A DNA stretch of 64,000 nt from a virus (lineage: Duplodnaviria > Caudoviricetes). How positions within the stretch are numbered: position 1 is the first letter of the stretch; each line of letters opens with the position of its first letter. Shown here piece by piece: positions 16,149 through 63,777 of the stretch. Location of the stretch: IMG/VR virus record IMGVR_UViG_3300033463_000012. The stretch is one strand, 5' to 3'. Made by a program: the position numbers and the translations under genes. Below the pieces are notes generated by a model that was given only the letters and a program-made list of their open reading frames with translations, had not been told where the DNA came from and did not search any database.

Positions 16149-16634
16149 TTACGAGTTATCATGGGTTATTGACCACAATGTCCATTTGTTCCATTCATTA
16201 GCTAGCATTTTTCCAGTTTCAGCATCTATTACCTTAAAACAACCACCATGTTCTTTTGCATACTTTTTTATAAGTTCAATGGCTTCATCATAATCATCTG
16301 TTGTAGTCAATAATTTCGCTGATTCATATGGCGGTTCATTTACGACTTTGTATTTCTTTTTTGAATCTTCATTGTCTTCACGAAGCATGCGACCGCGACG
16401 GAGACGACGGGATTCATCTAGGTCTTCATTATTTTCATCATCTTCATCATCATAAAAATAAGTTTCAGCTACATATTCTGTTGCACTTGCAACAATTTCT
16501 TCAAACACACTTCTATTCAAATACTTTTCATATTTATTCAAAAAATCTCTTAACACATCCACAAGCTTATCGTGGATGGCCAGTTCTTTTCTTGTCCAAT
16601 CTTCATCAATTCTCATATTCCACTCCTTTTGCAC
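16149..16634 (-). CDS. Two-module protein with LDESRRLRRGRMLRED linker
   Basis: AT-rich ORF, late promoter CTAAATTAGACAGAA upstream. Confidence 0.75.
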   Translation of the reverse strand: MQKEWNMRIDEDWTRKELAIHDKLVDVLRDFLNKYEKYLNRSVFEEIVASATEYVAETYFYDDEDDENNEDLDESRRLRRGRMLREDNEDSKKKYKVVNEPPYESAKLLTTTDDYDEAIELIKKYAKEHGGCFKVIDAETGKMLANEWNKWTLWSITHDNS

Positions 16635-16663
16635 TTCATTGTGCTATTAAACTTCTGTCTAAT

Positions 16664-17113
16664 TTAGCATCTCCAGAACTTGCTCGTGATGTCCTCATTT
16701 TTCTTCAAATCCCACATTCGCTGATTGGTTGTCCTCTTGTTCAATGGACCACAATCTTTGACAAATGGACCAGTTTTCAAGTAATCCAGGTTGTCCTTGA
16801 TTTCCTGAGACACGTCATCGAGCCCGGTGTACAGGGCAGTCTTGAGTCCTAGGTCCTTGACCAACTTGAGCATTCCGACCAGCCATTCCTCTTCCCATTC
16901 CCCGCCGTAGAACAGAATGCAGGAAACGTGAGGAGTGTATTTGCCCAGCCAGTTCATCAGGTATTCTTCATTGAATTCCTCGCCCAGCTCCTTGTCCCAC
17001 AGAAACTTGGAGTGGCAATCAGGGCAGTGTATAGGACAACCGGTGCAGGAAAACGCCAGGGATATTTCACCCGGCACTTCCTGAAAGACAATTTCAGCAT
17101 TACATGATTTCAC
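16664..17113 (-). CDS. nrdG: Anaerobic ribonucleotide reductase activase
   Basis: IVFQEVPGE, CxxxCxxC radical SAM motif, GGE, LYTG, TNQR; start inferred. Confidence 0.92.
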   Translation of the reverse strand: MKSCNAEIVFQEVPGEISLAFSCTGCPIHCPDCHSKFLWDKELGEEFNEEYLMNWLGKYTPHVSCILFYGGEWEEEWLVGMLKLVKDLGLKTALYTGLDDVSQEIKDNLDYLKTGPFVKDCGPLNKRTTNQRMWDLKKNEDITSKFWRC

Positions 17114-17612
17114 TGGTTTCGTCTGGCTCCTCTTCGTAAAGGTCTTCCTCTTCTTCGACATCTTCTGTCTTCGAATTGATCGCTTCCTTTAGTTCAGTGA
17201 TCAATTGTTCGACATACCAATCAAATTTGTCCATGAAGCTGATACATAACCTCAAGGCAGTGTCGGGTGACGTCCTTCTTTCCGGTTCGATCAACATCTT
17301 CATTGGATCAAATCCTTCTTGCTTCAGATGCATCCAGGTTTCGGCAAAGGTCTGCACGGAAGGGTCATCGGCTTCGTTTCTGTATTTTTCCACAGTAGGA
17401 CCGCTGACGTTCAACTTGTAGATGTTCAGTCTATGGCCGATGGCTCCATAGATGACAGGGACCAATTTGTCAAACACCTCTTTGGTGCACTCCTTGTCCA
17501 ATTCATTGTTTGTCCATATCTTTCCATTATGTTCAAACAATTCCATGTCCATCAAGGTGATTTCGCCCCAGATATATGTCTTCAACCAATCCTTGTCATC
17601 TATCCCGTACAT
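17100..17612 (-). CDS. Hypothetical protein between nrdD and nrdG
   Basis: 170 aa, GGAGG SD. Confidence 0.7.
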   Translation of the reverse strand: MYGIDDKDWLKTYIWGEITLMDMELFEHNGKIWTNNELDKECTKEVFDKLVPVIYGAIGHRLNIYKLNVSGPTVEKYRNEADDPSVQTFAETWMHLKQEGFDPMKMLIEPERRTSPDTALRLCISFMDKFDWYVEQLITELKEAINSKTEDVEEEEDLYEEEPDETSEIM

Positions 17613-17630
17613 GATGACCTCCTGTCCGAA

Positions 17631-19493
17631 TTAATGATAATATCGCTTTGCTGCTTCTATCTGCCTTCCTTTCGAGAAGTTAGAGATTTTCTTCAAATAC
17701 CCGATCACGCGAGTAAGGTATGACAAGGAAGTCGAACCACATGCAGGGCACTTGTCCAGGGTATGCTTGTCGATATGACCGCACGCTTCGCAATAGGTGC
17801 CGAGAATGTTCGTGGTCCAATAGTTGCATCCTTCCTTGGCCGCGATGCACATCATCTTGTAGTATTGCTCAGCGTCGGGGAATTCCTTGAGATTGAGGTG
17901 AAGTGCAGAACCACCGTCCAGATACTTGATCATGTCACCGCCGTGCATTCTGAACTTGTCGATTTCGGTCAGGGTTTCGTCCTCGACCTTGTAGAAATAG
18001 GAATTGTAGCAGTCACGAGGAACTTCATAACCAGCTTCCTTGTCCCATTTCGAGTTCTTGATGCCAAGGTTTTCCGCGGGAACGTATTCGGTGTTGAACC
18101 GATAGCCATATTTCATCTTCCCGGCCTTGTCGGTGTCGTAGATGACCTTGAGAAGTCCGGAGACGAATGACTTGTAGGAATCATTGTTGGAGATTTCAAG
18201 TCCGAGGTATTCGGAACCTTCGACCAACCCGTTCACCCCGGTGGTGAGGAACTGCTTGTCAAGGTCGATATATCCGGCGTCATAGACAGGAAGCATGCGG
18301 TGGGCCTTGTAGGATTCCATGACGGAACGATAGGCGACCTGATACTTCTGAATCTTTTCGACCTGAACCTGGACCGCCTTGTAGATGCGTTCCTTCAATT
18401 CATCGAAGTGATCCCTGAGCATCTCTTCCTTCGTGATTTCCTTTTCGGTCATGAAGGACTTGGCTGTGTTCTGAATCAAACGGTTGAAATTGATGGTGAT
18501 GACATTGATCGAACCTGACTTCACGCCACCAGCACCAAGTGAATAGGAGAAGTCATTGTCGGCCAATTCATTCCGAAGTCTGCAACAGGAGGAAAGACTG
18601 TCAACAGAATTGGATTCATAGACAAAGAAGCTGTTCCCTTCGGCCAAATCCTGAGCGCGATCCCTGGCAAATTGTTCATCGACTGGCTTTTCATTGTCAA
18701 CCAACATGGCCGCGGTGACCACGGGGAAAGTCAGAATCGCCTTGGTCCGTTCTTCGTTGAACCACTTCATAAAGAAATTCTGCAACTTCTGAACGGATTT
18801 CCACGAGGGCTGAGTGAAGTCCGGGAAATAGAAATTGCCGAACAGGGAATCGAAATAGTTTTTGTCGAACAGAGAAACATTCCAGAAGGTCGACTGATAG
18901 TTGCGGGCGCCTGCAGGTTGATTCAAGCAATAGACGACCTGCTGCAGAAGGTCGGTGATTTCCTTCTTGTTGGTTTTCAAATAGTTGTCACCGAAGTCCT
19001 TTCTGGCGAAATAGTCAAAATATGTCAAAAATTCGACCGTGGCCACTGCACCTGCAAACTGACAGGCAATGGAATAAATCATGTTCACAAAGGATCCGCA
19101 GAATGAATGCAGATGCTTCGGAGCCAATGATTCACCACCAAGTGACTTCATGCCACCGGTGAGGAATGGATACATGGAAATGGCGACGCAATATGGCATC
19201 AAGGAAGTTTCGTCGTGAGCATAGATTTCGTGCTCGTCCAACTGCCTGATGTATTCATCGGCGGTTTCAGTGTCGAACAATTTGGATATCTTGTTGTAGA
19301 GGATTTTGCGGTTGACTTGTATGTTTACGTCTTTGTTCAACTCACATGACATTGAAGTCATGTTCTTCACGGTGACGTTGGCGTTTGCATCCAATTTCGC
19401 CCCCGTGGCTGGATTCTCACTATGTGTGAAATCCTTAATGAATTCAATTTTGCTTTCGATTTGCTTTTGTGTCAACTTCACAAAACCTGACAT
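17631..19493 (-). CDS. nrdD: Class III ribonucleotide reductase
   Basis: SSCCRL, PAE, zinc ribbon CxxC..CxxC, glycyl radical RVIGY. Confidence 0.95.
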   Translation of the reverse strand: MSGFVKLTQKQIESKIEFIKDFTHSENPATGAKLDANANVTVKNMTSMSCELNKDVNIQVNRKILYNKISKLFDTETADEYIRQLDEHEIYAHDETSLMPYCVAISMYPFLTGGMKSLGGESLAPKHLHSFCGSFVNMIYSIACQFAGAVATVEFLTYFDYFARKDFGDNYLKTNKKEITDLLQQVVYCLNQPAGARNYQSTFWNVSLFDKNYFDSLFGNFYFPDFTQPSWKSVQKLQNFFMKWFNEERTKAILTFPVVTAAMLVDNEKPVDEQFARDRAQDLAEGNSFFVYESNSVDSLSSCCRLRNELADNDFSYSLGAGGVKSGSINVITINFNRLIQNTAKSFMTEKEITKEEMLRDHFDELKERIYKAVQVQVEKIQKYQVAYRSVMESYKAHRMLPVYDAGYIDLDKQFLTTGVNGLVEGSEYLGLEISNNDSYKSFVSGLLKVIYDTDKAGKMKYGYRFNTEYVPAENLGIKNSKWDKEAGYEVPRDCYNSYFYKVEDETLTEIDKFRMHGGDMIKYLDGGSALHLNLKEFPDAEQYYKMMCIAAKEGCNYWTTNILGTYCEACGHIDKHTLDKCPACGSTSLSYLTRVIGYLKKISNFSKGRQIEAAKRYYH

Positions 19494-19535
19494 ACATCCT
19501 CCGTATTGTTCAACTGTCAGTATTTAGATAGGTAA

Positions 19536-20357
19536 TCAAAGAAGCACACAGGGAGTCGGGGCTTCATTCAACCCGTCATCCTTGGTGTTCAATCTTGATT
19601 CGATCAACAACTTCGACTTTTCTCTGAAGTCAAAGCATTGATGCTCCTGGAAAACCATAGAGTTTTCGCTCAGCCACACCAACTTGCACCCATGAACAGG
19701 CAAGCCGATTTTCTCCAGAATCAAGCGATAGATTGACAACTGACCGGAATAGGCATGCAGGTTGCTGTCCGGACAATTGTCGAAAGGTGGAAGCAGATAT
19801 TGCCATTTGTTCTCGGTCGTGAATTTCCCGTTCGTCTTCCAGTCATATATCCAAAGGTTTCCCTGTTTGTCCAGGAAAAGTTGGTCAATAGTTCCGACCA
19901 CTCTCCATTCAGGGATCCCCACTTTCACTTCTGATCTTACGGGAATCAATTCACCCGTCTTGATGTACATATTGAGGAATCTGTCTGCAGCCGGCTTCGT
20001 CTTTTCGAACGCCTCGACTATTTCCTCTCTGTTCAACTCGGCCGGAATCTCGAATGGCTTGTTGGACAGATTGCATTCCATGTAGTAGTGGACGAGTGTG
20101 CCTTTGTCGCAAGCGCGCTTTGCCTTGTTGTCCCATTCCTCAAGGATCATTTCCTTTGTGCAGCCGCGGTCCTTGGCTTTCTTTGTCGCCCAGAAATCGG
20201 AATCGAATGGCTTGTGAAGCGTGCCGGTCAAACCAGTGGCCGATATCAGTTCTTCTGGCTTTATGTCCAGACCTTCAAACCAATACTTATGCGCTTCCGG
20301 TTCAAACTTGATGTTGTCGAATACCTTGAGTTTTTCCAATATCGCCAGCTTGTCCAT
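19536..20357 (-). CDS. PD-(D/E)XK exonuclease
   Basis: GTLVH, E, GTIDQL, DWKT, QLSIY. Confidence 0.85.
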   Translation of the reverse strand: MDKLAILEKLKVFDNIKFEPEAHKYWFEGLDIKPEELISATGLTGTLHKPFDSDFWATKKAKDRGCTKEMILEEWDNKAKRACDKGTLVHYYMECNLSNKPFEIPAELNREEIVEAFEKTKPAADRFLNMYIKTGELIPVRSEVKVGIPEWRVVGTIDQLFLDKQGNLWIYDWKTNGKFTTENKWQYLLPPFDNCPDSNLHAYSGQLSIYRLILEKIGLPVHGCKLVWLSENSMVFQEHQCFDFREKSKLLIESRLNTKDDGLNEAPTPCVLL

Positions 20358-20847
20358 CTACGAATTCCTTGAAAGTTTTGCAATGACTCTTGAAGGAGTC
20401 GATAATTTTAGCTTTGTCTCCGGTTATTAAGATACTAGGTATCATGCCACCGTGCACATGCATATACAATTTTATTTCATCCAATCCAACAGGAAGGACT
20501 CTTATGTAGTCATTTGAATCTTTAGGATATTTGCAACCGAATCCCCACGTGAAGTTATCGACAATGAAAAATCCTTCCGCTTGAGCGATCATCTTCAACA
20601 TGTTTCTCCAGAGATTGTAGCGAAACCAAAATCCCTTGAAGCCTTCCCAATGAGTTTTCATTTCCTCGGCAAATTCATTAATGCTGAAAAATGTCTCCTT
20701 GGACAAGAAAAGGCAATCGCCTTCAAATCTCCACCCTTCGTCATAATGGATCAGATGAACACCATAGTTTTCACCGAGAATGATGTTCACATCATTGACG
20801 TCATATTGGGCGCCGGCGTTTCTCAATGATTCAAGTGTTTCAAACAT
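20302..20847 (-). CDS. Hypothetical protein, paralog of 20840-21394
   Basis: Shares xxEF.EE...W.G and TG....IIDS segments. Confidence 0.65.
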   Translation of the reverse strand: MFETLESLRNAGAQYDVNDVNIILGENYGVHLIHYDEGWRFEGDCLFLSKETFFSINEFAEEMKTHWEGFKGFWFRYNLWRNMLKMIAQAEGFFIVDNFTWGFGCKYPKDSNDYIRVLPVGLDEIKLYMHVHGGMIPSILITGDKAKIIDSFKSHCKTFKEFVDGQAGDIGKTQGIRQHQV

Positions 20848-21394
20848 GACGACAAGACCACGTGGGCTCACCGCCAGATGCTACGGTGAGGACTGACCCG
20901 GTTTCCAAGTCATTTTTCCATTCTTTGGTCCTGAGAAGTTCGACCAAGGAATCAATGATCATGGACTGCTTCCCGGTGAAACAGTATTTGTCACGGGACT
21001 TGTTGCACATGAGTTCGATGTCATCAGCGCCAAAGAAATAGATGTAAATCGAATGATCGCACTTTTCCTTGCTCAAAGTGATCACACCGTTCAGACAAGA
21101 GTTTTCATCATCCACCTTCCAACCAGTTTCCTTGATCTTTTCGGAGATGAGTTTGGTCAACAACTTCACGGTGTATTCAATCTTGTCGAGTCCACCCCAC
21201 TTCCTGTTGGCCTCTTCGAAGAATTCGTCCAAGGTCTTGTATTTCGTCTTTCTGATGAACGGGTTGTTTCCGGGATTCATCACGATGTTTCCCAGTGACC
21301 ATTCATTGTTCCAGAAGCTGATGTATTCACTGAACCCGCTGGTCATTTTGATTTTGTAGGCAACGGGTTCGAGATAAGGCATGTTGTTTTCCAT
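20840..21394 (-). CDS. Hypothetical protein, paralog of 20302-20847
   Basis: 184 aa, TATTATATT element directly upstream. Confidence 0.7.
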   Translation of the reverse strand: MENNMPYLEPVAYKIKMTSGFSEYISFWNNEWSLGNIVMNPGNNPFIRKTKYKTLDEFFEEANRKWGGLDKIEYTVKLLTKLISEKIKETGWKVDDENSCLNGVITLSKEKCDHSIYIYFFGADDIELMCNKSRDKYCFTGKQSMIIDSLVELLRTKEWKNDLETGSVLTVASGGEPTWSCRHV

Positions 21395-21450
21395 ATTTCA
21401 AATATAATAAGAATTTCTGAACTGGGCTAAATTTTCTGGAGGAATTGTCA

Positions 21451-21933
21451 ATGATCCTTAATGAAGTCAAGTATTCGGACATCAGAAAGGGAGTCGATGC
21501 GAAGACGAGGGAAAGGACCAAAGCCCTCAAATCGATTCTGGTTGGCTACAAAAATGGCCAGCTGATCTTCAACACTCGCTCCGGGACTGTTCCTGGAAAG
21601 TGGTGGGTGCAGAAAGTCAGACTGCTCGACTTGCCCGAATTGCTTAAGGACACTGAACTTTCCCATTACGATATTGTCAAACTTGCTCTGCAGGGAGACA
21701 TCAAGGTGACCTGCAATTGTCCGGCACATCTCTACTGGGGATCGGCATATCGGTTGGAAAAACTTGGAGCCGAAGAAGAATTGAAAAACGTGGAACCTCC
21801 GGAACATAATACCGTGATCAACACCCTGGCTTGCAAGCACATTGACAACACGCTTTTCGCTCTTCCTTTCAATGCTCGACAGATTACGAAAATGCTGGAG
21901 CAAGCGGGAGTATTCAATAAAGAGGCTCCCTGA
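21451..21933 (+). CDS. SWIM-like zinc-finger protein, late
   Basis: CNCPAH...CKH; CTAAAT at 21427 and GGAGG SD. Confidence 0.7.
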   Translation: MILNEVKYSDIRKGVDAKTRERTKALKSILVGYKNGQLIFNTRSGTVPGKWWVQKVRLLDLPELLKDTELSHYDIVKLALQGDIKVTCNCPAHLYWGSAYRLEKLGAEEELKNVEPPEHNTVINTLACKHIDNTLFALPFNARQITKMLEQAGVFNKEAP

Positions 21934-22390: not shown

Positions 22391-22406
22391 AATTCAAATA
22401 TAATAA

Positions 22407-22435: not shown

Positions 22436-22453
22436 CATCGTCTCTACAACATT

Positions 22454-28676: not shown

Positions 28677-30242
28677 TCAATAGCCATCACGAAGGATAGC
28701 TTTGAATATGTCCATGGGTTCCTTGCTGTCATCTACCAGATATGACGCCTGAGTGAAGTCATATTCATAGGATTCCATATCTTGCCATGATTCGGGTGCA
28801 TTGGGACAAGTTGTTCCAGACATGTAATCGAGGGCATTTTGTAGATGATTATCTTCGTCTTCCTCTATCAAATTATAGTAAGTTTCCATATCACCTTTTC
28901 TACAAGCAGCTAGGAACATTTCTTTGATTTCTGGATTGACTTTATTGAGTTCAGATTGAGCATTCATAATACAGTCAACTGCGAGTTCGATTCCATCGAC
29001 TTCCTCTTCTTCATCGTCGTAGGATTCTTCGATGACTCGACCATATCTCTTCCAGGATTCAATCTTCTTCACCACGTCGTCCACACCCTTTGCAAGAGTG
29101 TTCGTGATTTCTTCGGGGTTTTCTCCGGTCTGAGGCATGAATTCTCTTTCAGGGGCACCGGAAATCGAATTGTTGTTTTTCTTCAGGGATAGACAATTAC
29201 GAACGGCGTAAGTAAGGACCTTTGCACCGGCACTGTCATCATCGTTGAAACCGGATTTAATGCCAGCGATTTTACGTTCAGGGTCCTTGGAAAGAATGTT
29301 TTCGCAAAGTTTGGAGAATTCCTTTTTCTTTGGAGAGGAATCATAGCACTTCTGAGCAGCAGTCAACATGGTTGCTTCGTCTGCTTCCAGAACATTGCAT
29401 GCAGTTTCCTTCTTTCCGTCTATCTTGCTGGTCGCGATTGGAACCTTGCCGAGAGTGGAAGCGATAACACCCTGAACTGCAGCCAGTGCCTGTTTGGGCA
29501 AAATTTCTTCAGTGGACTTGAAGTTAATGGCGGCAATCTTCGAATTGGGATTGAAGGCATAGACCTGAGACCATCTGTGGTGGCCGTCAATAATGAATTT
29601 CCCTTCAAAAACCCAAATAGGAGAACCAGCTTCAATGCTAGGAGATTCCTCGGAAAGCATTCTGGTGACCGTATCTTCGGCTTCATTGGGCTTGGTGACC
29701 GGGAAGCCAATGGAGTTTTCCAGACCAATGAAGTTCTGAGTGGGAATAAGTTTGTTCACAGGAATATAACCAGACTGCTGAACCTTGATCTTGATGTCCC
29801 CGGAACCACCACCGAAGGCATAGTCAATCCACTTTTCCATCTTCGGGTCATTTACGCCCTTGATCAGCTTGTTGACGAATTCCTTGTATTTGATTCCGTC
29901 TTCAATATCTGCAGGGGCCTGGACCTCTTCCTGTTTTCCACCTTCGTCTTCATCTTCCTTTAGCATTCGGCCAGTGGGATGATGAGATTCCTCTAGTTCC
30001 TTTTCCGTTTCATAGACGTATTCCAGAACATCTTCGGGATAAAGGTTTGACTTTTCGTCGTAATAGTCATCTTCATTTGAGTCCTTGTGAACATCCCAGC
30101 CGTGATCATTCAGAATGGCCACTACATCAACACCACTGAGTGAAACCCGAATCTCAGTTTCATCATCGAGGCACCATGGATTATATCCGGCTTTTCTCAG
30201 AATGTTGAACAATTCTCTTGCTTTTTCTCTATATCCATCCAT
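28677..30242 (-). CDS. Three-module protein with central ParB/Srx-like domain and two linkers
   Basis: LIPTQ...IIDGHHRW; linkers LEESHHPTGRMLKED and IESWKRYGRVIEES; late promoter. Confidence 0.75.
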   Translation of the reverse strand: MDGYREKARELFNILRKAGYNPWCLDDETEIRVSLSGVDVVAILNDHGWDVHKDSNEDDYYDEKSNLYPEDVLEYVYETEKELEESHHPTGRMLKEDEDEGGKQEEVQAPADIEDGIKYKEFVNKLIKGVNDPKMEKWIDYAFGGGSGDIKIKVQQSGYIPVNKLIPTQNFIGLENSIGFPVTKPNEAEDTVTRMLSEESPSIEAGSPIWVFEGKFIIDGHHRWSQVYAFNPNSKIAAINFKSTEEILPKQALAAVQGVIASTLGKVPIATSKIDGKKETACNVLEADEATMLTAAQKCYDSSPKKKEFSKLCENILSKDPERKIAGIKSGFNDDDSAGAKVLTYAVRNCLSLKKNNNSISGAPEREFMPQTGENPEEITNTLAKGVDDVVKKIESWKRYGRVIEESYDDEEEEVDGIELAVDCIMNAQSELNKVNPEIKEMFLAACRKGDMETYYNLIEEDEDNHLQNALDYMSGTTCPNAPESWQDMESYEYDFTQASYLVDDSKEPMDIFKAILRDGY

Positions 30243-30293
30243 ATTTCAAGCTCCTTTATGCTATGAAACATTAAAACTTCTGTTTAATTTAGC

Positions 30294-30572
30294 TCAGATG
30301 AACATTGATACCTGATACTTGTTTCCATTTTTGTCCGTCATGTAATATGGACAATCCATGATTTCGTCCATGTTTTCCTTGACGTCATCTATCACGCCAA
30401 GTTCCTTTGCCTTTATCAGCATGAGGTCCAAGTCCTTGAAATTCCCTTCGGTCATCAACTTCTTGGCGTCACGGGCATAGGCAGCGACATCGTCTATTGA
30501 CTGATTGGAGAAAACCAGGCAGATGTATTTGCCAGTTTCTGGATTTCGAACATTGATGATTTTATTTTGCAT
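30294..30572 (-). CDS. Hypothetical protein
   Basis: ORF with GGAGG SD overlapping the upstream gene end. Confidence 0.6.
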   Translation of the reverse strand: MQNKIINVRNPETGKYICLVFSNQSIDDVAAYARDAKKLMTEGNFKDLDLMLIKAKELGVIDDVKENMDEIMDCPYYMTDKNGNKYQVSMFI

Positions 30573-31632
30573 TGAGCGCCTCCGGGCCAATGAGAGCTGT
30601 TGTCCATCTCTTTACGTTTATCAAACTTTCGGACCACCTGCCTTCCTTTTCCATCCATTCCCTTTGCTTCTTGAGCATTGTCTCGAAATTGGATTTGTCG
30701 CAAGCGTCCTTTATCTTTCTGTCAATCTCGTCCTTGGAAATGTCAACAGGAGCGGTCATCTGACATTCGACATAGGGAGAATTGTCGAAAGTCGTTCCAA
30801 AACAAACGCATTCCATTGCACTCGCTTCGACCAACTTGATGTCAGATTTGCACTTGTTGAAGACATGGTCAGCCAAAGGATTTATGGAGAAATGTGGATC
30901 AATTTTACGAATGAGGCCAGGCAGTGAGGAATAAGGCATCCAAGGATAGACCTTGATTTTGTCCTGGATTTCGTCAAAGAACCACGGGAGGGAACCGATG
31001 CAATGGAATTCGATTTTCCCTTTCTTCACTGATTCGATCACCCAGCTTGCCCATTCCTCTGTCCAGTCACCGTAGAGTTTGTTCGTATTCCCGAAGTGGG
31101 TCGATGAACCGGAATAGAGGATTCTCGGAACCTTGATGTCCTTGTCCAACTTCTTTTCCGGTGTATACCATAGTGCCTTTTGAACGGTATTCGGAATGAT
31201 CGACGAGGGACCTTTATGCATGTTGTCCCAGACCCAGCTTGTGAGATACTTGGTGGAAAACGTCTTCATGTTCATCAGACTCATCCACTCGATTTCGTTT
31301 CGTCTGTCCTCTGCGGAGAATTTGGCGAAGTTCGGTTTCAGGAAATTCCACTCAGGCAGAAGGTCATCCCAAATCAGGTCGTCGTTGTCCAAGATCAACC
31401 TGACGTGAGGAAATTTCGCCTTTATCTGCTTGAGGTCATTGAGAATCTGAACATTGCTCCTTCCACGGAAAATCACGAAGGCAGTCTCGGACAACACCTT
31501 TGGATGTATCGGAAAGCAGGGAAGGTCAAAGTAATAGAGATTCTGAATCCTTTCCGCCAGAGTGTCCAGTGGATTTTGGATTCTGATCTTGGATATCGCG
31601 TTTTTCTGTGATACGAATGAAAGTCCTACCAT
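30562..31632 (-). CDS. GT-B glycosyltransferase-like protein
   Basis: DNDDL, IPN, YSGSSTH..D, PL..HVFNKCKSDIKLVE. Confidence 0.8.
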   Translation of the reverse strand: MVGLSFVSQKNAISKIRIQNPLDTLAERIQNLYYFDLPCFPIHPKVLSETAFVIFRGRSNVQILNDLKQIKAKFPHVRLILDNDDLIWDDLLPEWNFLKPNFAKFSAEDRRNEIEWMSLMNMKTFSTKYLTSWVWDNMHKGPSSIIPNTVQKALWYTPEKKLDKDIKVPRILYSGSSTHFGNTNKLYGDWTEEWASWVIESVKKGKIEFHCIGSLPWFFDEIQDKIKVYPWMPYSSLPGLIRKIDPHFSINPLADHVFNKCKSDIKLVEASAMECVCFGTTFDNSPYVECQMTAPVDISKDEIDRKIKDACDKSNFETMLKKQREWMEKEGRWSESLINVKRWTTALIGPEALNAK

Positions 31633-35156: not shown

Positions 35157-35909
35157 TTATGATAATGCTTCCATCAATTCATCGAAGTGTTCTTCTATGT
35201 CTTTTCTACTTAATTGATAATTACCTCTGACTCTTCTTCCTACATCAGGAACATGTTTTTCTAGATAATCAACCAGTTTTCCTACTGTTCCATAACCATT
35301 AAGTTCTATGTAAACTGGATACTTGTCCTCTGAAATTTCAAAACTTCTATAACAAGAAGAAGGGCCTCTATGTAACCAATTTATACAAGAACCATGGTCT
35401 CCTCTATATCCATCTGCTATGATACGCACCATTTCTCTATCACTACTATCATCAAAAACATCATACAATGCTTCCAAGAATTTCAATACATACTTTGACT
35501 TTTCTTTCTGCTCAGTCCTGAATCCTTCCCGAAGCATCCGACCACGGAGACGACGGGATTCATTGAATTTTCCTTCTCTGGACATTTTTATATGATTTTC
35601 AGTCCTGATGCTGGAAATTTCATCATCAACAACATATCTTATTGCTTTGAACATTGGTCCGGCTGAAAACACAATATCGAAATTTTCAATATCATAAACA
35701 TCAATATCCAATGAAGCACCTAAATCAATAAGAGGCCTGACTATTTTCGTCAAAGCATCTGTCATATTTATTGGCAGATTAGGAAGATTGGTTTTTACTC
35801 CTTCATCATCATTTCTGCGATGGATTTGAACATATGAACCTTCGACTGGATTCAAATCTTTGTCAAAGGCATCAAATCCTTTTCTGTTTACTGTTAGTCG
35901 TCCAAGCAT
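35157..35909 (-). CDS. Two-module protein with FNESRRLRGRMLREG linker
   Basis: AT-rich; last gene of the tail operon. Confidence 0.75.
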   Translation of the reverse strand: MLGRLTVNRKGFDAFDKDLNPVEGSYVQIHRRNDDEGVKTNLPNLPINMTDALTKIVRPLIDLGASLDIDVYDIENFDIVFSAGPMFKAIRYVVDDEISSIRTENHIKMSREGKFNESRRLRGRMLREGFRTEQKEKSKYVLKFLEALYDVFDDSSDREMVRIIADGYRGDHGSCINWLHRGPSSCYRSFEISEDKYPVYIELNGYGTVGKLVDYLEKHVPDVGRRVRGNYQLSRKDIEEHFDELMEALS

Positions 35910-40269: not shown

Positions 40270-40292
40270 ATTCGTTATCTCCTAATGATAAA

Positions 40293-40310
40293 ACTTTCTG
40301 TTGAATTTAG
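40293..40310 (-). promoter_or_regulatory. Late promoter CTAAATT-N3-CAGAA (representative of about 17 CTAAAT sites)
   Basis: Recurs just upstream of sheath, terminase, baseplate and linker-bearing genes. Confidence 0.7.
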
Positions 40311-40809: not shown

Positions 40810-41127
40810 TCACTTCTGGTTGATCACACCAACGGTTTCGCCTTTGTCACCAACCCAGGCGTCCTTCGACTTTTCGGGAGGAGGAATCTGTTCAACGTTC
40901 GGGTTGTATTCAATTCCAAGCAGCTTCAGGAAATGATTCTCGGCTTCCTTGGCGGCATTTTCAATAACCGCCAAAGCCAGCTGTTCATCTCCATCCAAGT
41001 GCCAAAGAAGGACTTGCCATTCCTTTGATCCTGGCTTGATCGCCAACTGCTTCAATGCCTGCTTGTAGTCCGTGGTTATCGCATCTACGCAGGTGTTTTC
41101 CTTCAAATAATCCTTGAAGTTTTTCAT
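40810..41127 (-). CDS. Candidate internal head protein with capsid-targeting-like N-terminus MKNFKDYLKE
   Basis: Resembles T4 IP leader MKTYQEFIAE; CTAAAT upstream. Confidence 0.65.
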   Translation of the reverse strand: MKNFKDYLKENTCVDAITTDYKQALKQLAIKPGSKEWQVLLWHLDGDEQLALAVIENAAKEAENHFLKLLGIEYNPNVEQIPPPEKSKDAWVGDKGETVGVINQK

Positions 41128-56239: not shown

Positions 56240-57295
56240 ATGAAAGATTGGAAAAAATACATCACCGAAGTCAAGAACGTTCACAGCAAGGAAGATTTGA
56301 TTACGAATCTTCGTGCATCCCGTGGTCTCAATTCCGACAATCCAAATCAGGATTCCTCTCAGACGGAAGAAGAGGACACACTTGACTACGAAAAGAAGGA
56401 ATTGGAATACGTCAACACCGAATTGGCCAAACAGACTCATAAGTCCAACAAGAAGGTGAAGTCGCTCAAGAAGAAGCTGAAGAAGTTGAAAGGCAAGGTT
56501 TCTGATCTTGAGGACGAAAAGGACGAATTGGAATCTCAACTTGATCAACAGGGAAGTGAAGATGAAACCGAAGAAACCTCAGAAGACAATTCCGGCGAGG
56601 AAGCCCCTGAAGGCGAAGAAGGCGAATCCTCCAATGAAGAACAGGGTGGCGAGGAAGGCGAAGTAGAGGACAAAGAAGGGGAAGAATCAGAGGAATCGGA
56701 AGAATCAGAAGAAGAGGAAAAAGGCCTCAACTACGACGATGACCTTGACTCCGTGGTCGACCTCGGTGGAAAGAAGAAACGCAATGAATCCTTGGAAAGA
56801 TTGATAAATGGCCCTATGAACATCCTGATGGAAGCGATCGAAAACGGGGCGAAGTTCGAGGACAACTACATCTGGTGGGACAAATATCCCTGCTATTTCG
56901 CCTATGTGGTTTCCCCCGAACAGAAGGGCGTCGTGGTTCTCAAGGGTTCCCATGACCTTCACGTGGTCGGTTCCGGTTTCACAAAGAAGGAGCTGGAAGA
57001 CTGCATGAAGTGCTTGGCTGACAATCTCCCCTCCAACGTTAAGGAGATTTCGTCCCATGGTGGTATTTCTCCGGGAGGCATAAATGTCCTTTTGAGATTG
57101 AAGGACTATGGCTGGACTTTGACCGGAACGGAAACCGGGGACGATCACTATTGGTGCGCTGAAATAGATGAGGAAAAATTCGTCAGTTGGATTTCCAAGG
57201 CCGAAAACGAGGACTATTGGGAAGAAACAGGCGAAACCACGGGTGACTTCCTGAAGGACACTCGACCCAAGGTTCCGGTAATGAAACGAGGATAG
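56240..57295 (+). CDS. Acidic modular protein with capsid-targeting-like N-terminus MKDWKKYITE
   Basis: Coiled coil, Glu-rich linker, globular C-terminal domain after NES...ILME; late promoter. Confidence 0.7.
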   Translation: MKDWKKYITEVKNVHSKEDLITNLRASRGLNSDNPNQDSSQTEEEDTLDYEKKELEYVNTELAKQTHKSNKKVKSLKKKLKKLKGKVSDLEDEKDELESQLDQQGSEDETEETSEDNSGEEAPEGEEGESSNEEQGGEEGEVEDKEGEESEESEESEEEEKGLNYDDDLDSVVDLGGKKKRNESLERLINGPMNILMEAIENGAKFEDNYIWWDKYPCYFAYVVSPEQKGVVVLKGSHDLHVVGSGFTKKELEDCMKCLADNLPSNVKEISSHGGISPGGINVLLRLKDYGWTLTGTETGDDHYWCAEIDEEKFVSWISKAENEDYWEETGETTGDFLKDTRPKVPVMKRG

Positions 57296-57301
57296 GACCT
57301 C

Positions 57302-57973
57302 ATGCCAATCTCGAACGAACTGCCAGATTGCGACAATTTCGACAGTCCTTACTTTGACTTTGCGTCAGAGTGCTACGAGACTGAATCGAAAATGATCGAT
57401 GATTTGACCACAGAGGAAATCAATTTGGCCGGCGTGATGGGATATTGGTATGTCGTGGACTATTCACTGAAAAATGAAAGAGTGTTCGGTGAGGACAACT
57501 CCAGGACGATATTGCGGAAATTCCCGTTCATGTTCCTGGTCGAAGGTCTGCCGATAGATGACAAGAAGTGGTCAAAATTCGGCATAGAAGGTATGGACAA
57601 CTTTCACATAGTGGTCGCCAAGGCGGGATTCACCCAGGCGTCAATGATGATGGCCGACGGGATGACTCCTGCATACGAGCCGAGAAACCCTCACTCCGGT
57701 GACATTTTTCAATCCACGCACAACAATGTATTCTATCGAGTATTGGACGTGAAGGACAAGGGAGACACAATGCTCCAGCGCGCCCATAGCTTTGACTGCA
57801 TTGTGACTCCTCTGGAAATGGCTCACCACAACATCGCTCCTATTCTGAAGGACGACATCATAGCGAAATTCAATGACGCGAAGGACTCCCTGGCGCAGAA
57901 CATGAAACTCGACAGGTCCAAGCGTCCACAAGGTCTAGATTCTTTTGGCAACGTTGTATTTGGAGGTAAGTGA
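57302..57973 (+). CDS. gp14: Neck protein
   Basis: E.I...G, FGED, SKFG, P.SGD pattern. Confidence 0.8.
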   Translation: MPISNELPDCDNFDSPYFDFASECYETESKMIDDLTTEEINLAGVMGYWYVVDYSLKNERVFGEDNSRTILRKFPFMFLVEGLPIDDKKWSKFGIEGMDNFHIVVAKAGFTQASMMMADGMTPAYEPRNPHSGDIFQSTHNNVFYRVLDVKDKGDTMLQRAHSFDCIVTPLEMAHHNIAPILKDDIIAKFNDAKDSLAQNMKLDRSKRPQGLDSFGNVVFGGK

Positions 57974-58530
57974 TGGCCGAGCAAAAGCGATTCTACAAGG
58001 GAGATTATTCTGCAACCCTCTACATCGGGGACGACATTGACAACGAGATGGCCAAGGACTTCGTCTCGACCTTGGCTCAGATAAGCGCTCAGCTGTTGGA
58101 TACCCCTGGCGCCAAAATCCTCGTGGACATCAACTCCACCGGAGGGAATGTCTATGATGCATTCTCGATCATAAATGCGATCAAGACTTGCCCGATTCAG
58201 GTCGACACCTATGTTTCCGGCCTGGCCGCTTCTTCTGCCTTCGTCATCGCCCTGGCCGGCAAGGATCGTTATTGTTCAGACCTGGCCAACTACATGTTCC
58301 ATTCCGTCTCCGCCACCTCCTCGGGAACCATGGCCTATTTGCAGAATGACGTGGCGCAGACACTGAACTTGCAGAAGATGCTGGTGGATTTCGTCAGGAA
58401 AAATTCGAAGATTTCCAAGAAGAAATTGGAAACCATAGTCAATGCAAACCGGGATAGCTACTACATGCCTGTTGATTGCGTTCGTATGGGCGTGGTCGAC
58501 TACATCGTGGACGTTGAATCCCGAAGATGA
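57970..58530 (+). CDS. ClpP-like serine protease
   Basis: INSTGG, GLAASSA, MFH, G.VD. Confidence 0.88.
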   Translation: MMAEQKRFYKGDYSATLYIGDDIDNEMAKDFVSTLAQISAQLLDTPGAKILVDINSTGGNVYDAFSIINAIKTCPIQVDTYVSGLAASSAFVIALAGKDRYCSDLANYMFHSVSATSSGTMAYLQNDVAQTLNLQKMLVDFVRKNSKISKKKLETIVNANRDSYYMPVDCVRMGVVDYIVDVESRR

Positions 58531-58554
58531 GCTAAATTCTCAAAAGGAGAGAAG

Positions 58555-59022
58555 ATGACACTTTTGGAATATGTCAAGAAAATCCCTGGACATAAAAACT
58601 CCAAAGGTGAATCTGCTCCTTGGACGATAGTTTCGCACAAGACCGGCAAGGTTCTTTCCTCTCATAAGACAAAGGAAGAGGCAGAGAAACACTTGCAGCA
58701 GATGCATTATTTCAAAGAGGACGTAAACATGAGCAGAGCGAAGAAAGTTTGCGAAGACGGTGAATACTGGTATGAAGTGGAAGTTGATCCCAACTCAGAT
58801 GAACACAATGATGGCACCTATATAGTCGATTGCAAATTCTGCGGCGACACTTACCTCTTCAAGGGATTGCCCGAAACACTAGTTTTCAACAGAAGCAAAA
58901 AAATCCAGGACATTCTCCCTAATCTCGAACCTGAATATCGGGAAATGTTCATCTCCGGCATGTGCCCCAAATGCTGGGACAAGATGATCGGGGATGACGA
59001 AGAAGAGGAAGATGAGGAATAA
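58555..59022 (+). CDS. Two-module hypothetical late protein
   Basis: MTLLE leader, basic domain ending HYFKE, then C..C...REMFISGMCPKCW. Confidence 0.75.
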   Translation: MTLLEYVKKIPGHKNSKGESAPWTIVSHKTGKVLSSHKTKEEAEKHLQQMHYFKEDVNMSRAKKVCEDGEYWYEVEVDPNSDEHNDGTYIVDCKFCGDTYLFKGLPETLVFNRSKKIQDILPNLEPEYREMFISGMCPKCWDKMIGDDEEEEDEE

Positions 59023-59023
59023 T

Positions 59024-59413
59024 ATGGAAGAAGTAAGCGAAACGGAATTGACAAAACTGATCGAATCTGGCTTCAATTGCAAGATTGACTACATGCGATT
59101 GGACGAAGGATATCTTGCGCTCATTGCGAAGATAGGAAAAGACATAAATTTTGAACTGAACTATGACAGTGAAAAATTCTTCCCGAACACCATAACAGGA
59201 ACAGTTGACCGTTGCAGATTTGACACCTACTTCAGTGAACCAAAGAATGTCGAGGAATTCCTTGGCAATGTTTTGTCATCTGTTGCCGATGAATATGGTT
59301 TCAGTAAGACCAAGACTTGGATAAACGGGGTGAACAGGTCCTACATATTCAAGGCACTTGACATGATTCAGAAAGTGGCGAACGGTGAAGCGTATTACGA
59401 CAAGGATGAATAA
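59024..59413 (+). CDS. Hypothetical protein
   Basis: GAGG SD. Confidence 0.7.
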   Translation: MEEVSETELTKLIESGFNCKIDYMRLDEGYLALIAKIGKDINFELNYDSEKFFPNTITGTVDRCRFDTYFSEPKNVEEFLGNVLSSVADEYGFSKTKTWINGVNRSYIFKALDMIQKVANGEAYYDKDE

Positions 59414-60276
59414 TGGCGAAGAAATTGTGCATATCCATTTGTGGTGGCGGGATCAAGGGCGTTTGGGTTTCTCAATTCCTTTCCCGTCTTGAATCCGACC
59501 TTGGCAAATCAATAGCCAAACAGGTGAAGGCTGTGGCCGGGACATCAACCGGTTCCATCATTGCTGCCGCTTTGGCTGAAGGGTTGTCCGCCACGGAAAT
59601 CACTGACCTCTACGTGAACAAGGGGTCCAAAATCTTCACCAAATACCCTGCATACAAGAGAGTCCTTCCCAAATATCCGACCTATGACAATTCCAACTTG
59701 AAGAAGATCCTCAAGGACATTCTCAAGGGAAAGATGAGCGAATTCAAAATCCCCGTCTACATCCCGACCACCTACATGAATGGAACAAGCGTGGAGAAGG
59801 TTTGGGACAAGGGGGACGACAATATTGACAAGTGGTTCGCAGTCCTGACCTCCTGCTCCGCTCCTACCTATTTCGACGTTGTGGTTCAGGGCAATGATTC
59901 CTACTGCGATGGTGGTATTTGGGGAAATGACCCCTGCATGGTTCTTCAGTCCGGTTTGAAAAAGGAATACCCGAAGTTCGGTGACATCAAGGTCCTTTGC
60001 TTCAATACCGGTGGGATTTCCAAGCACGAGGACACCGGAAACAAGACGATGCTCGGGTGGGCTGAATACTTCATCGACAATGTGGGGAACGCAGGGGACA
60101 GCAACTATTTCGAACTCTGCGCCAACATCGGGGAAGAAAATGTGTTCCGGGTCAATCCTAAGGTCGGTGGGAAGATGGATGATGCCTCCAAGGATCACAT
60201 CTCCAAGCTGATAGACATCGGGAATTCTGCCTATGATTCCTGCAAGGACGAGTTGAAGAAGTGGTTGAAGAAATAG
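59413..60276 (+). CDS. Patatin-like phospholipase
   Basis: GGGIKG, GTSTG, SAPTYF, DGG. Confidence 0.93.
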   Translation: MAKKLCISICGGGIKGVWVSQFLSRLESDLGKSIAKQVKAVAGTSTGSIIAAALAEGLSATEITDLYVNKGSKIFTKYPAYKRVLPKYPTYDNSNLKKILKDILKGKMSEFKIPVYIPTTYMNGTSVEKVWDKGDDNIDKWFAVLTSCSAPTYFDVVVQGNDSYCDGGIWGNDPCMVLQSGLKKEYPKFGDIKVLCFNTGGISKHEDTGNKTMLGWAEYFIDNVGNAGDSNYFELCANIGEENVFRVNPKVGGKMDDASKDHISKLIDIGNSAYDSCKDELKKWLKK

Positions 60277-60284
60277 GAGAAATT

Positions 60285-61616
60285 ATGAGAAATGACAGAT
60301 TGAATGAAAGTCACGATTGGGATGAGTTTTCAAAGGAATTTCCTAACTCTGATGAATATCTCCCCGCTAGTGGTGATGGTGACAACATGGGAACTCAGGC
60401 ATCTACTGCACTCTGCAAGTTGGTGTACAAATGGTTCAATGACGGTGACGTTTACGACAACAACTACGGAATGGAAGGATGGTGCAATGACATCTCCGGT
60501 TCCGCAAACTGGCTGTACAAACATATTCCTGAAACAAGGGAAATTCTCGATCGTATCGAAGAGGTCAACACAGATGAAGCATATACTGACCTTCTTTATG
60601 ACCTGTGCGAAGTCGTTGACCCAATGATCCCGGAATTGTTGAACGAACCCAAGGTCGGTGATGCCTACAATGAAGATGGTCCTTATCATTTCACGGAATT
60701 CATCGAGTGTCCCGAATGCAGAGAAAAATTCGATCCTAATGACCCGCTGCAATGGGTCAGCTTCATGGGATGTTGCAGAGATTGTGCAGAAGAAATGGAA
60801 CAGGAAGAGGAAGAAGAACTGGACGAATCTGTTCAGCGGTTGGATGAAACCAGTTGGTTTAAACAACGGGAACTTGCATGGGAACTCAGATATGAAGATT
60901 ACAATGGACTTGAAAGTGCTGAACGAGATCAAAATGACTATGGTCGTGCAAAATGGATAATGGGTGTAATCGAAAAAGATGTTCAGGATTTGCCAGAAGT
61001 CAAAAACACTGATTTGGATGCAGATGGGTATATTCACAAAGAAAAGAAATATGTAGACAGACCTGGATATGCATATTTCTCTGGCCATGCCTATTTGACC
61101 ATAACTGTTAATGACGAAAAAGTTGAATTGGATTTGAATGACAAATACAGATGCATAGACATTTTGTATGGTGACCACCTGGAAAAGACCCTGAAATACG
61201 TCGCCTCCTTCAAACATGACAATAATGGTCAGATGCTCGGGAAGATAAGGGCGAAGATGCGTCCTTGGTGGAAACGTCACCTGTCCGAAGAAAGCTACGC
61301 CAAGTTGTACCCCAATGCTGCAGCCGAAGAAGCTGCAGCAGAGGCAAAGAAAGCTGAACTTCAAAAGGCCAAGGAAGAAGAAAGGGAAAGAAAGGCAGCC
61401 GAAAGACTTGCAGCCCTTGACCCTGACATGGACGTCAACCCGATTCAGATGACTCGCCGTTTCTGGAAGATTCAGAAGGCGCTAAAGGCAGGGGAACAGA
61501 ACCCGGAACCTCAGGAAAAGGTGGATGAACTCAAGGCATTCATGAACACCAAGGGAGCCATGGACGCATTCGGCAAATACTACAATTTCGCCAGAAGTTT
61601 CATGAGCAAACTTTGA
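60285..61616 (+). CDS. Modular acidic protein with RLNES and LDESVQRLDET sites
   Basis: Zinc-binding acidic module, AT-richer middle module, helical tail. Confidence 0.75.
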   Translation: MRNDRLNESHDWDEFSKEFPNSDEYLPASGDGDNMGTQASTALCKLVYKWFNDGDVYDNNYGMEGWCNDISGSANWLYKHIPETREILDRIEEVNTDEAYTDLLYDLCEVVDPMIPELLNEPKVGDAYNEDGPYHFTEFIECPECREKFDPNDPLQWVSFMGCCRDCAEEMEQEEEEELDESVQRLDETSWFKQRELAWELRYEDYNGLESAERDQNDYGRAKWIMGVIEKDVQDLPEVKNTDLDADGYIHKEKKYVDRPGYAYFSGHAYLTITVNDEKVELDLNDKYRCIDILYGDHLEKTLKYVASFKHDNNGQMLGKIRAKMRPWWKRHLSEESYAKLYPNAAAEEAAAEAKKAELQKAKEEERERKAAERLAALDPDMDVNPIQMTRRFWKIQKALKAGEQNPEPQEKVDELKAFMNTKGAMDAFGKYYNFARSFMSKL

Positions 61617-61624
61617 GGCAATAG

Positions 61625-63094
61625 ATGTTCTACAGGGAACTGTTTGAAGAATTCAAGAAATGGGTGACTTCCTCTCACATGGAGGAAGAGGTCCAGGATG
61701 CCTACGAAACGGGTGACATCAGTGTCTTCGACGAAATCCTCGAACAGTTCGAATTCTTTGTACAACATGAAGTCAAGGCGGATGACATCGTTTCCATGGT
61801 GGACGATTGGTGCGAACTTCAACCACTGACTGAAAGTGCAGAAAGCAGCATTGACTGGAACTCGTTTTCAGACCCGGACATTCAGAAGGGTGTTGATCTG
61901 ATGCGAAAGATAAATGACTGCGGTTACGAGGCATACATAGTCGGTGGCTGTGTTCGTGATATCGTCAATGGAGACAAGGACGTTCATGACATTGACATTG
62001 CCACCAATATGCCAATTTCGGAACTGAAGAGCAAGTTTCACACCGCAGACAATGGCGGGGAGAAACATGGAACAATTCTTGTCGAAAACGACGGAACCAT
62101 GTTCGAGGTGACTCAATTCAGAACCGAAACTGGTTATAGCGACGGACGACATCCTGACAAAGTGGATTGGACAAATTCATTCGAAGCCGACACCAAACGT
62201 CGTGACTTCACCATAAACGCCATGGGCATAGATGCAGATGGAAAGGTGATCGACTACAATGGTGGAATGGACGACCTACGCAACAAAGTGCTTCGTGCAG
62301 TAGGAAATCCCGTTGAACGTTTCACCGAGGACGCCTTGCGTATCATGCGCGCCATGCGTTTTGCCGCTCGATTCGACATGACCATAGCTGAAGAGACAAT
62401 GGAAGGAATAGTCGCTTGCAAGGATCAGCTGAGCAACATTGCAGTGGAACGCATCCAGGCCGAAATGATCAAGACTGCTGAATATGGCTCCAAACAGTTC
62501 GCGATCATTGTTTCCTTGATGAACGACACTGGATGCGGTGAGGTAATCGATCCTTATGGTTTCGTGGATTGGGGCAAGGCGACGGATTTGACCGAAGCAA
62601 GGGCACTGAATCCATTGTTCCCCGAATTGGACAAGGACGTCATAGTCTCCTTGGCCCTGCTGTTCTATGGAAGTGACACAAACAAGGCCATGTCATATTT
62701 CAGATGTTCAGGTGATCAGACCAGGAGCGTTGGATTCATCTATGACAACTTGGAGAATTACAGGCACCTTGAAGATTTGGACCCGATCAATGCCATTAAA
62801 ATTGTGAACAACAAGGACTTTGATCGGCTGCGTGAAGTGAACCATGCGATCGAAGGACATGACAGTGAAAGCGCCAAGGTCATTCCTGTGATCGAAATGC
62901 TGATCGACAAGGCATTGCCGAGATTCAAGGACATTTCCGCGATGATGAAGAAAGCTGGAATAAAATCTGGACAAAACTACGGAATCATCCAGAAGAAAAT
63001 TCAGAACAAAATCTGCAAGATGTATATGGACGGGATTGAACCGACCGATGATCAGATAATGGAAATGCTGATCAAATACAGTGAGCTAAATTAG
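61625..63094 (+). CDS. cca: Class II tRNA nucleotidyltransferase (CCA-adding) with acidic N-terminal extension
   Basis: VGGCVRD, DIDIAT, RRDFTINAM, EDALRIMRAMRF. Confidence 0.92.
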   Translation: MFYRELFEEFKKWVTSSHMEEEVQDAYETGDISVFDEILEQFEFFVQHEVKADDIVSMVDDWCELQPLTESAESSIDWNSFSDPDIQKGVDLMRKINDCGYEAYIVGGCVRDIVNGDKDVHDIDIATNMPISELKSKFHTADNGGEKHGTILVENDGTMFEVTQFRTETGYSDGRHPDKVDWTNSFEADTKRRDFTINAMGIDADGKVIDYNGGMDDLRNKVLRAVGNPVERFTEDALRIMRAMRFAARFDMTIAEETMEGIVACKDQLSNIAVERIQAEMIKTAEYGSKQFAIIVSLMNDTGCGEVIDPYGFVDWGKATDLTEARALNPLFPELDKDVIVSLALLFYGSDTNKAMSYFRCSGDQTRSVGFIYDNLENYRHLEDLDPINAIKIVNNKDFDRLREVNHAIEGHDSESAKVIPVIEMLIDKALPRFKDISAMMKKAGIKSGQNYGIIQKKIQNKICKMYMDGIEPTDDQIMEMLIKYSELN

Positions 63095-63138
63095 ACAGAA
63101 AATTTGCATAATAGTGTGCAATGAAAGGAGATTAGGAT

Positions 63139-63777
63139 ATGGCTTTTTATTCATATACCAACAAGGAAAAGGCAATAGATGCACTACAGCGTCTCTCTGA
63201 TGCATATGAAGACGTGGTGAACTACATAAGTGACGAGGACTTCAACAAGATTGCCTATGACATGCCTCTGGAAATCGATGACAATGATGATTATAGCAGC
63301 TTGATGGAAATTTATGACGGTTCTTTCGCTCCTCGTTCATTTGATGAATTGGAAATTACTACATTCTGCGAAGCCATGATCAATGGACTCAAACGTTTGG
63401 ACAATGTCAATGAATCCCGTCATCATGGTCATATGCTTAAGGAAAGTGAAGAAAAGCAGACCATGTACATGGATGACGTTCATTTGAAGAATTTGACAAT
63501 GGACGGAGAAATCTACGATAGATGGGGCTGGGATGATATTATAAACGCACTATGGCAACAGGTAGTTGATAAGGACAATATTGAAGATATTGTACGCACC
63601 GCCTTTGCTGAAAACAAGCACTGGAAAAACCCTACTAATAGAGGGTGGTTCCCTGTTCTTACCAAATTCTCTGGAAATGCAGGTAAGGCATATTTCGCTC
63701 TTAAAAACGAAAACGGTCGTCAGTCAAAGGATCAGGTTCTTGTTTCTTGGACCCCGGTTACTGAAGACGAACTGTAA
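63139..63777 (+). CDS. Two-module protein with VNESRHHGHMLKES linker
   Basis: Late promoter CTAAATTAGACAGAA at 63086. Confidence 0.75.
   Translation: MAFYSYTNKEKAIDALQRLSDAYEDVVNYISDEDFNKIAYDMPLEIDDNDDYSSLMEIYDGSFAPRSFDELEITTFCEAMINGLKRLDNVNESRHHGHMLKESEEKQTMYMDDVHLKNLTMDGEIYDRWGWDDIINALWQQVVDKDNIEDIVRTAFAENKHWKNPTNRGWFPVLTKFSGNAGKAYFALKNENGRQSKDQVLVSWTPVTEDEL

Follow-up and report, generated by a model that had tools for sequence, protein, structure and literature searches.

In phage T4, the prohead protease gp21 takes 65 residues off gp23 and 10 off gp24 (PMC9958956), and the cleavage logos of gp21-type proteases show little beyond a hydrophobic residue, any residue and Glu (Φ-x-E; PMC9026906). 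The T4 internal proteins are otherwise diverse, and their capsid-targeting sequence (CTS) is the sole part conserved among them (PMC3012670, PMC9026906). In giant phages, the cuts made by gp21-related proteases fall behind Glu in short motifs and take off N-terminal parts of at least 100 residues (PMC5694885, PMC9026906). A further class is formed by the polyvalent proteins of Iyer et al. (2017), which were proposed to be delivered together with the DNA and processed into units, and in which ParB-like modules occur (PMC5512222). How does a phage with one conserved peptide inside dissimilar proteins compare with these systems? Here we describe a linker peptide, Φ-x-E-S-(R/H)n-G-(R/H)-M-L-(R/K)-E, that is common to four otherwise dissimilar open reading frames (ORFs) of the phage in IMG/VR record IMGVR_UViG_3300033463_000012; the window analysed is a stretch of 64,000 nucleotides of this record. 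We lean towards reading the linker as a combined targeting and double-cleavage cassette, which would serve the S77 prohead protease in polyproteins packaged into the head; cleavage and packaging are what we infer from sequence comparison.

The linkers and the genes that carry them lie in the window as follows, where bits are scores with an external hidden Markov model (HMM) described below.
16149-16616, minus strand: P0001/P0006, 155 aa from the ATG at 16616; helical acidic N-module, linker, small alpha/beta C-module (family F3)
16377-16415, minus strand: linker ESRRLRRGRMLRE in P0001/P0006, 17.8 bits
16661-16667, minus strand: CTAAATT late-type promoter motif, 44 nt upstream of the P0006 start
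35157-35909, minus strand: P0002, 250 aa, last in the tail-sheath operon; N-module F23, linker, C-module F24
35526-35561, minus strand: linker ESRRLRGRMLRE in P0002, 27.7 bits
28677-30242, minus strand: P0003, 521 aa; N-module, linker, ParB-like central module (DGHHR), degenerate linker, C-module
29955-29990, minus strand: linker ESHHPTGRMLKE in P0003, 24.8 bits
29025-29060, minus strand: possible decayed linker ESWKRYGRVIEE at a second P0003 site; 12-mer register kept, not listed by the HMM
30286-30292, minus strand: CTAAATT motif, 43 nt upstream of P0003
63139-63777, plus strand: P0004, 212 aa; N-module, linker, C-module
63412-63444, plus strand: linker ESRHHGHMLKE in P0004, 17.1 bits
63086-63092, plus strand: CTAAATT motif, 46 nt upstream of P0004
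894-1814, minus strand: P0005, 306 aa; weak look-alike ES..STKMLRE at 1485-1523, 1.2 bits; CTAAATT at 1838-1844

Across the whole 132,031-bp record there are four matches to the strict pattern, each within a long ORF and 68-117 residues after its N-terminus, and the four host proteins have no significant mutual similarity outside the linker. Could so short a motif recur by chance? An HMM was trained solely on 84 external copies from other metagenomes and scanned against 998 six-frame ORFs. The four linkers scored 17-28 bits and the next match 3.8 bits, so the copy number is far above chance. The original prediction had claimed that dissimilar ORFs share one linker, which the pattern scan, the similarity search and the external HMM all bear out, and the genome scan it proposed recovered exactly four copies. 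All six peptides that it quoted do lie in frame, but two degenerate ones are without HMM support. The membership of P0005 in the linker family is doubtful; the second P0003 site is conserved as ESWKRRGRFVES in a 58%-identical homolog from locus L004 (L003-L021 denote metagenome loci with linker-family genes, and G000 the IMG/VR record of the phage). The modules had also been described as acidic, and all flanking modules indeed have isoelectric points (pI) of 4.1-5.4. An AlphaFold model of P0001, which is weak (mean predicted local distance difference test, pLDDT, 58.8), has a helical N-module, an alpha/beta C-module and a coil between them; in this low-confidence model the coil at residues 58-89, with pLDDT <50, holds the linker. 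Scans of five window proteins and 66 linker proteins against Pfam and PHROGs gave almost solely families of unknown function, and a sequence search of P0003 against the PDB gave no match. The central module of P0003 (residues 100-395), with its DGHHR motif, matches an ESM Atlas cluster whose 1,237 members are viral proteins of about 295 aa that stand alone. For this module there are ParB-family hints only (ESM Atlas; score 0.95, TM 0.66), and the Pfam ParB models stay below threshold.

The linker is found outside this phage as well. About 90 metagenome proteins carry it, with consensus ESRRPRGRMLKE. A motif profile gave 72 linker proteins in a word-indexed collection, and of 1.84 billion cluster representatives searched exhaustively with HMMER, 64 passed E<=1e-3; so few matches among so many representatives mean that the linker is rare and confined to a small group. 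A back-translated DNA pattern gave one chance match in IMG/VR, and one true copy plus four out-of-frame chance matches in the JGI metagenomes, so that copies are all but absent from these two collections. All genomic contexts retrieved are T4-like, with the linker genes lying by Portal_T4 or gp5-like baseplate genes, upstream of gp15, or near UvsX, PolB, gp32 or DnaB. Gp23-family capsid proteins were found on contigs of 180,567 and 66,123 bp, sizes equal to those recorded for linker proteins. One protein holds one to four copies, spaced about 70-200 aa apart. The anatomy was tallied across 109 distinct copies. Position P3 ahead of the first Glu is hydrophobic in 87 copies, against 12-14 for P2 and P4, and the Glu is followed by Ser. 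The spacer after Glu-Ser has four residues in 85 copies, mostly R-R-(P/R)-R. The second half then reads G (104 copies), R (105), M (103), L (103), K or R, and Glu, and the residue past this final Glu is S, D, G or E. Both linker ends are thus of the form hydrophobic-x-Glu. Some simpler identities were ruled out. An AT-hook has the core R-G-R-P, whereas the linker core reads P/R-R-G-R-M; the residue behind RGR is Met in 103 of 109 copies and Pro in none. A relic internal start codon fails since some copies have Ile or Leu for this Met and a stand-alone homolog starts one residue earlier. A paralogous N-terminal domain fails as the host proteins are without similarity outside the motif. A Tat signal and a 2A-like skipping peptide were both rejected.

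What does the linker join? When 70 linker proteins were split at the linker, the resulting 182 modules fell into 37 families, which recur with changed partners and positions. For example, the C-module of P0001 (F3) is found behind four unrelated N-modules in metagenome proteins, and each module of P0002 (F23, F24) has another partner in P0071 and P0052, where the switch falls exactly at the linker. Modules also stand alone. The L004 homolog of P0003 is without the N-module and starts MRYLYEDEDEG where P0003 reads GRMLKEDEDEG, and the window itself has one such gene:
58555-59022, plus strand: stand-alone F13 module gene, 155 aa, acidic tail at the end; its L004 homolog is fused via a linker to the P0001 C-module
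Between its portal and protease genes the phage has two genes that are homologs of families F4 (YdcK-type beta-solenoid) and F21. It had been proposed to check whether the same modules occur in different combinations with breakpoints at the linker. They do so, with breakpoints exactly there, and they occur as separate genes too. As a side observation outside the window, a gene lying between those for the portal and the prohead protease (G000:C1:2504-3916, minus strand) encodes a YdcK-type beta-solenoid repeat protein of 470 aa, and several linker polyproteins have the N-terminal part of this protein as their F4 module.

Is it the peptide or its DNA that is conserved? Across linker copies the third codon positions vary, and CGN/AGR and CTN/TTG switches occur, while the residues stay constant. 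This synonymous variation with fixed residues indicates that selection acts on the linker peptide. There is also a skew in codon choice. Among the linkers from G000, L003-L009, L012, L020 and L021, all 22 use TCY (TCC or TCT) for Ser, and for Arg CGN occurs 77 times versus 7 for AGR. The genome of the phage prefers AGA and AGG for Arg, unlike its linkers. Such a skew indicates that the cassette copies have a common origin or are under a further constraint of some kind. The near-identical DNA noted for the first two linkers holds up under a codon count, as they have 10 of 12 codons in common where 4.2 are expected (P about 1e-4). One might then suppose that the element is conserved for a role of its DNA or RNA, be it as a site of recombination or as a mobile cassette, with its translation incidental. 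The skewed codons, the two linkers with 10/12 codons in common and the module-exchange breakpoints at the linker speak for this, and T4-type phages are known to shuffle modules via conserved non-coding promoter/stem-loop cassettes (PeSLs; PMC2839356, PMC4122927). However, third positions vary freely and six-fold codon families switch with the amino acids unchanged, all copies are in frame, in sense direction and inside long ORFs, and half-motifs stand directly behind an initiator Met. We consider a DNA-level role of this kind very improbable. The earlier suggestion that the linker DNA is a recombination joint has weak support: selection on the peptide speaks against it, and the codon choice, in suggesting common descent of the cassette, speaks for it.

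If the peptide is selected, does it look like a cleavage site? The phage encodes a protease of the appropriate type:
G000:C1:1845-2483: S77 (gp21-type) prohead protease (PF03420, 130 bits; phrog_207), between the portal and scaffold genes
With an arrow for the cut, the T4 sequences at gp21 sites are ..SFLTE65↓AEIGG in gp23 and MAKINELLRE↓STTT in gp24, and IPII and IPIII of T4 start MKTYQEFIAE↓A. The capsid protein of the phage, aligned to T4 gp23, reads ..GGRGFLTE↓ADTG at the same place, and related capsid proteins in the clade conserve GRG[FL]L[TS]E. One linker of L009 is directly followed by RRPVRRGRFLTE. Set beside the gp23 and gp24 sites of T4 and the capsid-protein sites of the clade, the second half of the linker, RGRMLKE↓S, is thus a very near likeness of sites where cutting by an S77 protease is known or to be expected. 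The original prediction regarded each linker as a double cleavage site around a basic spacer. This fits the Φ-x-E at both ends, the presence of an S77 protease and the likeness to the gp23, gp24 and own capsid sites.

A second candidate enzyme is encoded in the window:
57970-58530, plus strand: ClpP-like serine protease, 186 aa (PF00574, E 5e-24; Ser, His and Asp motifs), in a late operon
Its nearest phage relatives are siphovirus capsid maturation proteases and a hypothetical protein of Microcystis phage Mel-JY01. Might the linker be cut by this enzyme (57970-58530), or by a host protease, in the cytoplasm, so that the products need not enter the capsid? The ClpP-like gene lies in the late operon and adjoins the stand-alone F13 module gene; its L004 homolog is directly upstream of a stand-alone P0003 homolog and a linker protein; and an extra protease beside the S77 enzyme needs a job. 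Yet in L007, L008, L009, L020 and L021 the stretches up to 10 kb from the linker genes are free of matches to Clp families, and the two invariant Φ-x-E elements fit the specificity of S77 proteases and the site in the capsid protein. In addition, Glu-specific cutting is not known of ClpP-type enzymes. Cytoplasmic cleavage of this kind is decidedly unlikely in our judgement.

The second half of the linker is also met at N-termini, in the place of a leader. Half-linkers occur right behind the initiator Met in 17 of 89 linker proteins, as against 9 of 149 genes of the phage genome and 2 of 89 internal controls; examples are MRRMLRE, MRRFGKKMLNE and MVKRKRMIKE. Most linker copies are internal, some proteins have the whole linker at residues 3-15 and some have it near the C-terminus. 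What is more, stand-alone homologs of modules begin with short leaders that end in Φ-x-E at the module start, namely MRYLYE↓, MKCKRIIME↓KKYELTDET and MRIDE↓. The N-terminal half-linkers and these stand-alone leaders together suggest that the linker is a signal attached to each module and not a mere spacer. In this it appears to resemble the T4 CTS. Two late genes of the window have leaders like that of T4 itself (compare MKTYQEFIAE) and are candidate classical internal head proteins on the basis of these leaders:
56240-57295, plus strand: late gene of 351 aa with T4-CTS-like first ten residues MKDWKKYITE
40810-41127, minus strand: late gene of 105 aa with T4-CTS-like leader MKNFKDYLKE

The linker might also stay uncut and work as a short motif for docking or tethering within a flexible stretch, binding for example the acidic scaffold, DNA through its AT-hook-like RGR core, or a common partner; the fusions would then be multidomain proteins. 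A basic core RRPRGR conserved beyond the needs of a protease site agrees with this, as do the N-terminal, internal and near-C-terminal positions of the motif and its place in predicted coil. Docking alone leaves the invariant Glu-Ser, the invariant final Glu and the hydrophobic residue specific to P3 unexplained, as well as the equal viability of modules as separate genes, and we hold it to be unlikely.

When would the linker proteins be made? CTAAATT has 38 copies, of which 21 lie <70 nt upstream of gene starts, where it is 13-fold enriched, and CTAAAT[TA] is a real promoter-like element. It stands ahead of scaffold, protease, portal, sheath and terminase genes. As had been predicted, the linker genes sit behind CTAAAT or end a structural operon: the motif is ahead of P0001, P0003, P0004 and P0005, and P0002 closes the sheath operon. 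CTAAAT[TA] is also ahead of linker genes in L003, L004, L007, L008, L009 and L020. Judged by this promoter motif, common to head and tail genes, the linker genes appear to be late. Several late genes have a similar leader, ACAGAAGTTTTAAT, downstream of CTAAATT (16620-16667, 30246-30292 and 40273-40310, all on the minus strand), which suggests a conserved 5' untranslated element. CTAAATA occurs just upstream of NrdD and two other non-structural genes (17631-19493, 10761-11888 and 30562-31632, all on the minus strand). Either the motif is not strictly late, or these are chance copies.

The favoured reading, of a cassette for both targeting and cleavage, gives the following scenario. The portable unit acidic-Φ-x-E↓S-R-R-(P/R)-R-G-R-M-L-(K/R)-E↓(S/D/G/E) would concatenate independent small proteins, each Φ-x-E being a site for the T4 gp21-type (S77) prohead protease, and the basic stretch with RMLKE being a T4 CTS-like leader for the next module. 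A polyprotein made late would be drawn into the scaffolding core by its leaders. The protease, activated after shell assembly, would cut behind both glutamates, freeing the modules within the head, from which they would leave with the DNA, and releasing a basic peptide of 11-12 residues. Since every unit has an identical leader, recombination at or near the leader would give new in-frame combinations, which would explain the combinatorial architectures.

Several observations weigh against this scenario. The linker genes of the window sit among replication genes, outside the head cluster; the T4 genes ipI, ipII and ipIII are likewise dispersed among non-structural genes. The twelve conserved linker residues far exceed the known needs of gp21-type proteases, and with conservation reaching beyond Φ-x-E the basic core must have some other role. 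A canonical T4-like CTS is present on other genes of the phage, and a second kind of leader needs explaining. The modules are acidic and belong to families of unknown function, and the ClpP-like protease of the late operon is a rival enzyme. The targeting-and-cleavage reading can be extended, more tentatively and with less than even confidence, to a whole T4-like clade. Its members would load the capsid with polyproteins, one 12-14-residue cassette being targeting signal and double prohead-protease site at once, so that any small protein gaining it would become cargo and recombination would build cargo sets. On this extended reading the basic peptide that is cut out, SRRPRGRMLKE, might remain at the DNA and act as its counter-ion.

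A few words on the phage itself are in order. The window is part of a 132,031-bp IMG/VR record estimated as 66% complete, and a 182,555-bp ENA contig holds the same genes. The IMG/VR record stops inside the capsid gene (G000:C1:1-212, minus strand), and the ENA contig goes on with Gp23, gp25-like, gp13-like and other genes. The head genes comprise a T4-type portal, a scaffold protein, the S77 gp21-type prohead protease and a Gp23-family capsid protein. Also encoded are a family-B DNA polymerase, with 27% identity to cyanophage gp43, NrdD, DnaB, an SbcC/gp46-like protein, a tail sheath and a large terminase. By its gene content the phage is a very divergent T4-type myovirus. Against phage records, 8 kb of the window gave no match by megablast and P0002 none by tblastn; for P0003, the sole tblastn match is the central domain, in Microcystis phage Mel-JY01, where the linker profile, run without a positive control, gave no match. 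A search of IMG/VR for loci related to P0001 and P0002 found none. In the linker-bearing relative L007, two of the encoded proteins contain the Fibrobacter succinogenes major paralogous domain (PF09603; L007:117-3112), which may hint at a Bacteroidota or Fibrobacter-type host.

How, then, does the linker compare with what is known? The nearest system is the T4 CTS with IPI, IPII, IPIII and Alt. In both, a short leader ending in Φ-x-Glu is attached to unrelated, fast-evolving proteins, whose genes are scattered outside the head cluster and expressed late (here probably late, judged by promoter motif), and an S77 protease is present. However, a T4 protein has a single CTS, at its N-terminus, whereas the linker is mostly internal, repeated up to four times and strongly basic, has a second Φ-x-E-S site upstream and joins independent modules. 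The long propeptides of head and ejection proteins in giant phages (phiKZ gp175, SPN3US gp245 and 201phi2-1) are alike in multiple cleavage after Glu by gp21-related proteases. They differ in having the motif (S/A/G)-x-E with few other determinants, and no conserved 12-mer cassette, or module recombination at it, has been described for them. The polyvalent proteins are likewise multi-module proteins of variable architecture, and the linker proteins show this in the context of phage late genes. For polyvalent proteins, though, release by an embedded zincin (MPTase) peptidase was proposed and no conserved inter-module linker was described; a Pfam scan of 66 linker proteins gave no peptidase family, and G000 no SprT-like match. 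The modules here, unlike those of polyvalent proteins, are small and mostly of unknown family. PeSLs share with the linker that they are conserved short cassettes bordering exchanged modules in T4-type phages, but they are intergenic and non-coding, consisting of promoter and stem-loop, whereas the linker is coding, in-frame and selected as a peptide.

The S77 protease, Glu-specific maturation cleavage, CTS leaders, long propeptides, polyvalent proteins and cassette shuffling are thus all known parts. A literature search gave no description of a conserved internal linker that is repeated within proteins and joins freely recombining modules. Should cleavage and packaging be borne out, a polyprotein-style cargo system based on a dedicated linker cassette would have been found in a tailed phage for the first time. 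Such a system would explain the rapid recombination of injected accessory proteins, with likely anti-defence functions, and would extend substrate recognition by gp21-type proteases beyond Φ-x-E. In uncultured T4-like phages, the linker would also be a simple mark by which to recognise cargo proteins from sequence. As a tool, it would be a short natural tag for loading several foreign proteins, in fixed ratios, into T4-type capsids, where the T4 CTS loads one protein at a time. A last comparison, by analogy only, is with eukaryotic RNA virus polyproteins, which are likewise beads on a string with repeated cleavage-type junctions. Unlike those, the polyproteins here belong to a DNA phage, and the presumed protease is encoded separately and would act inside the procapsid. 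If the proposed role is right, the linker would make these proteins a phage counterpart of viral polyproteins, with a natural plug-and-play packaging tag.

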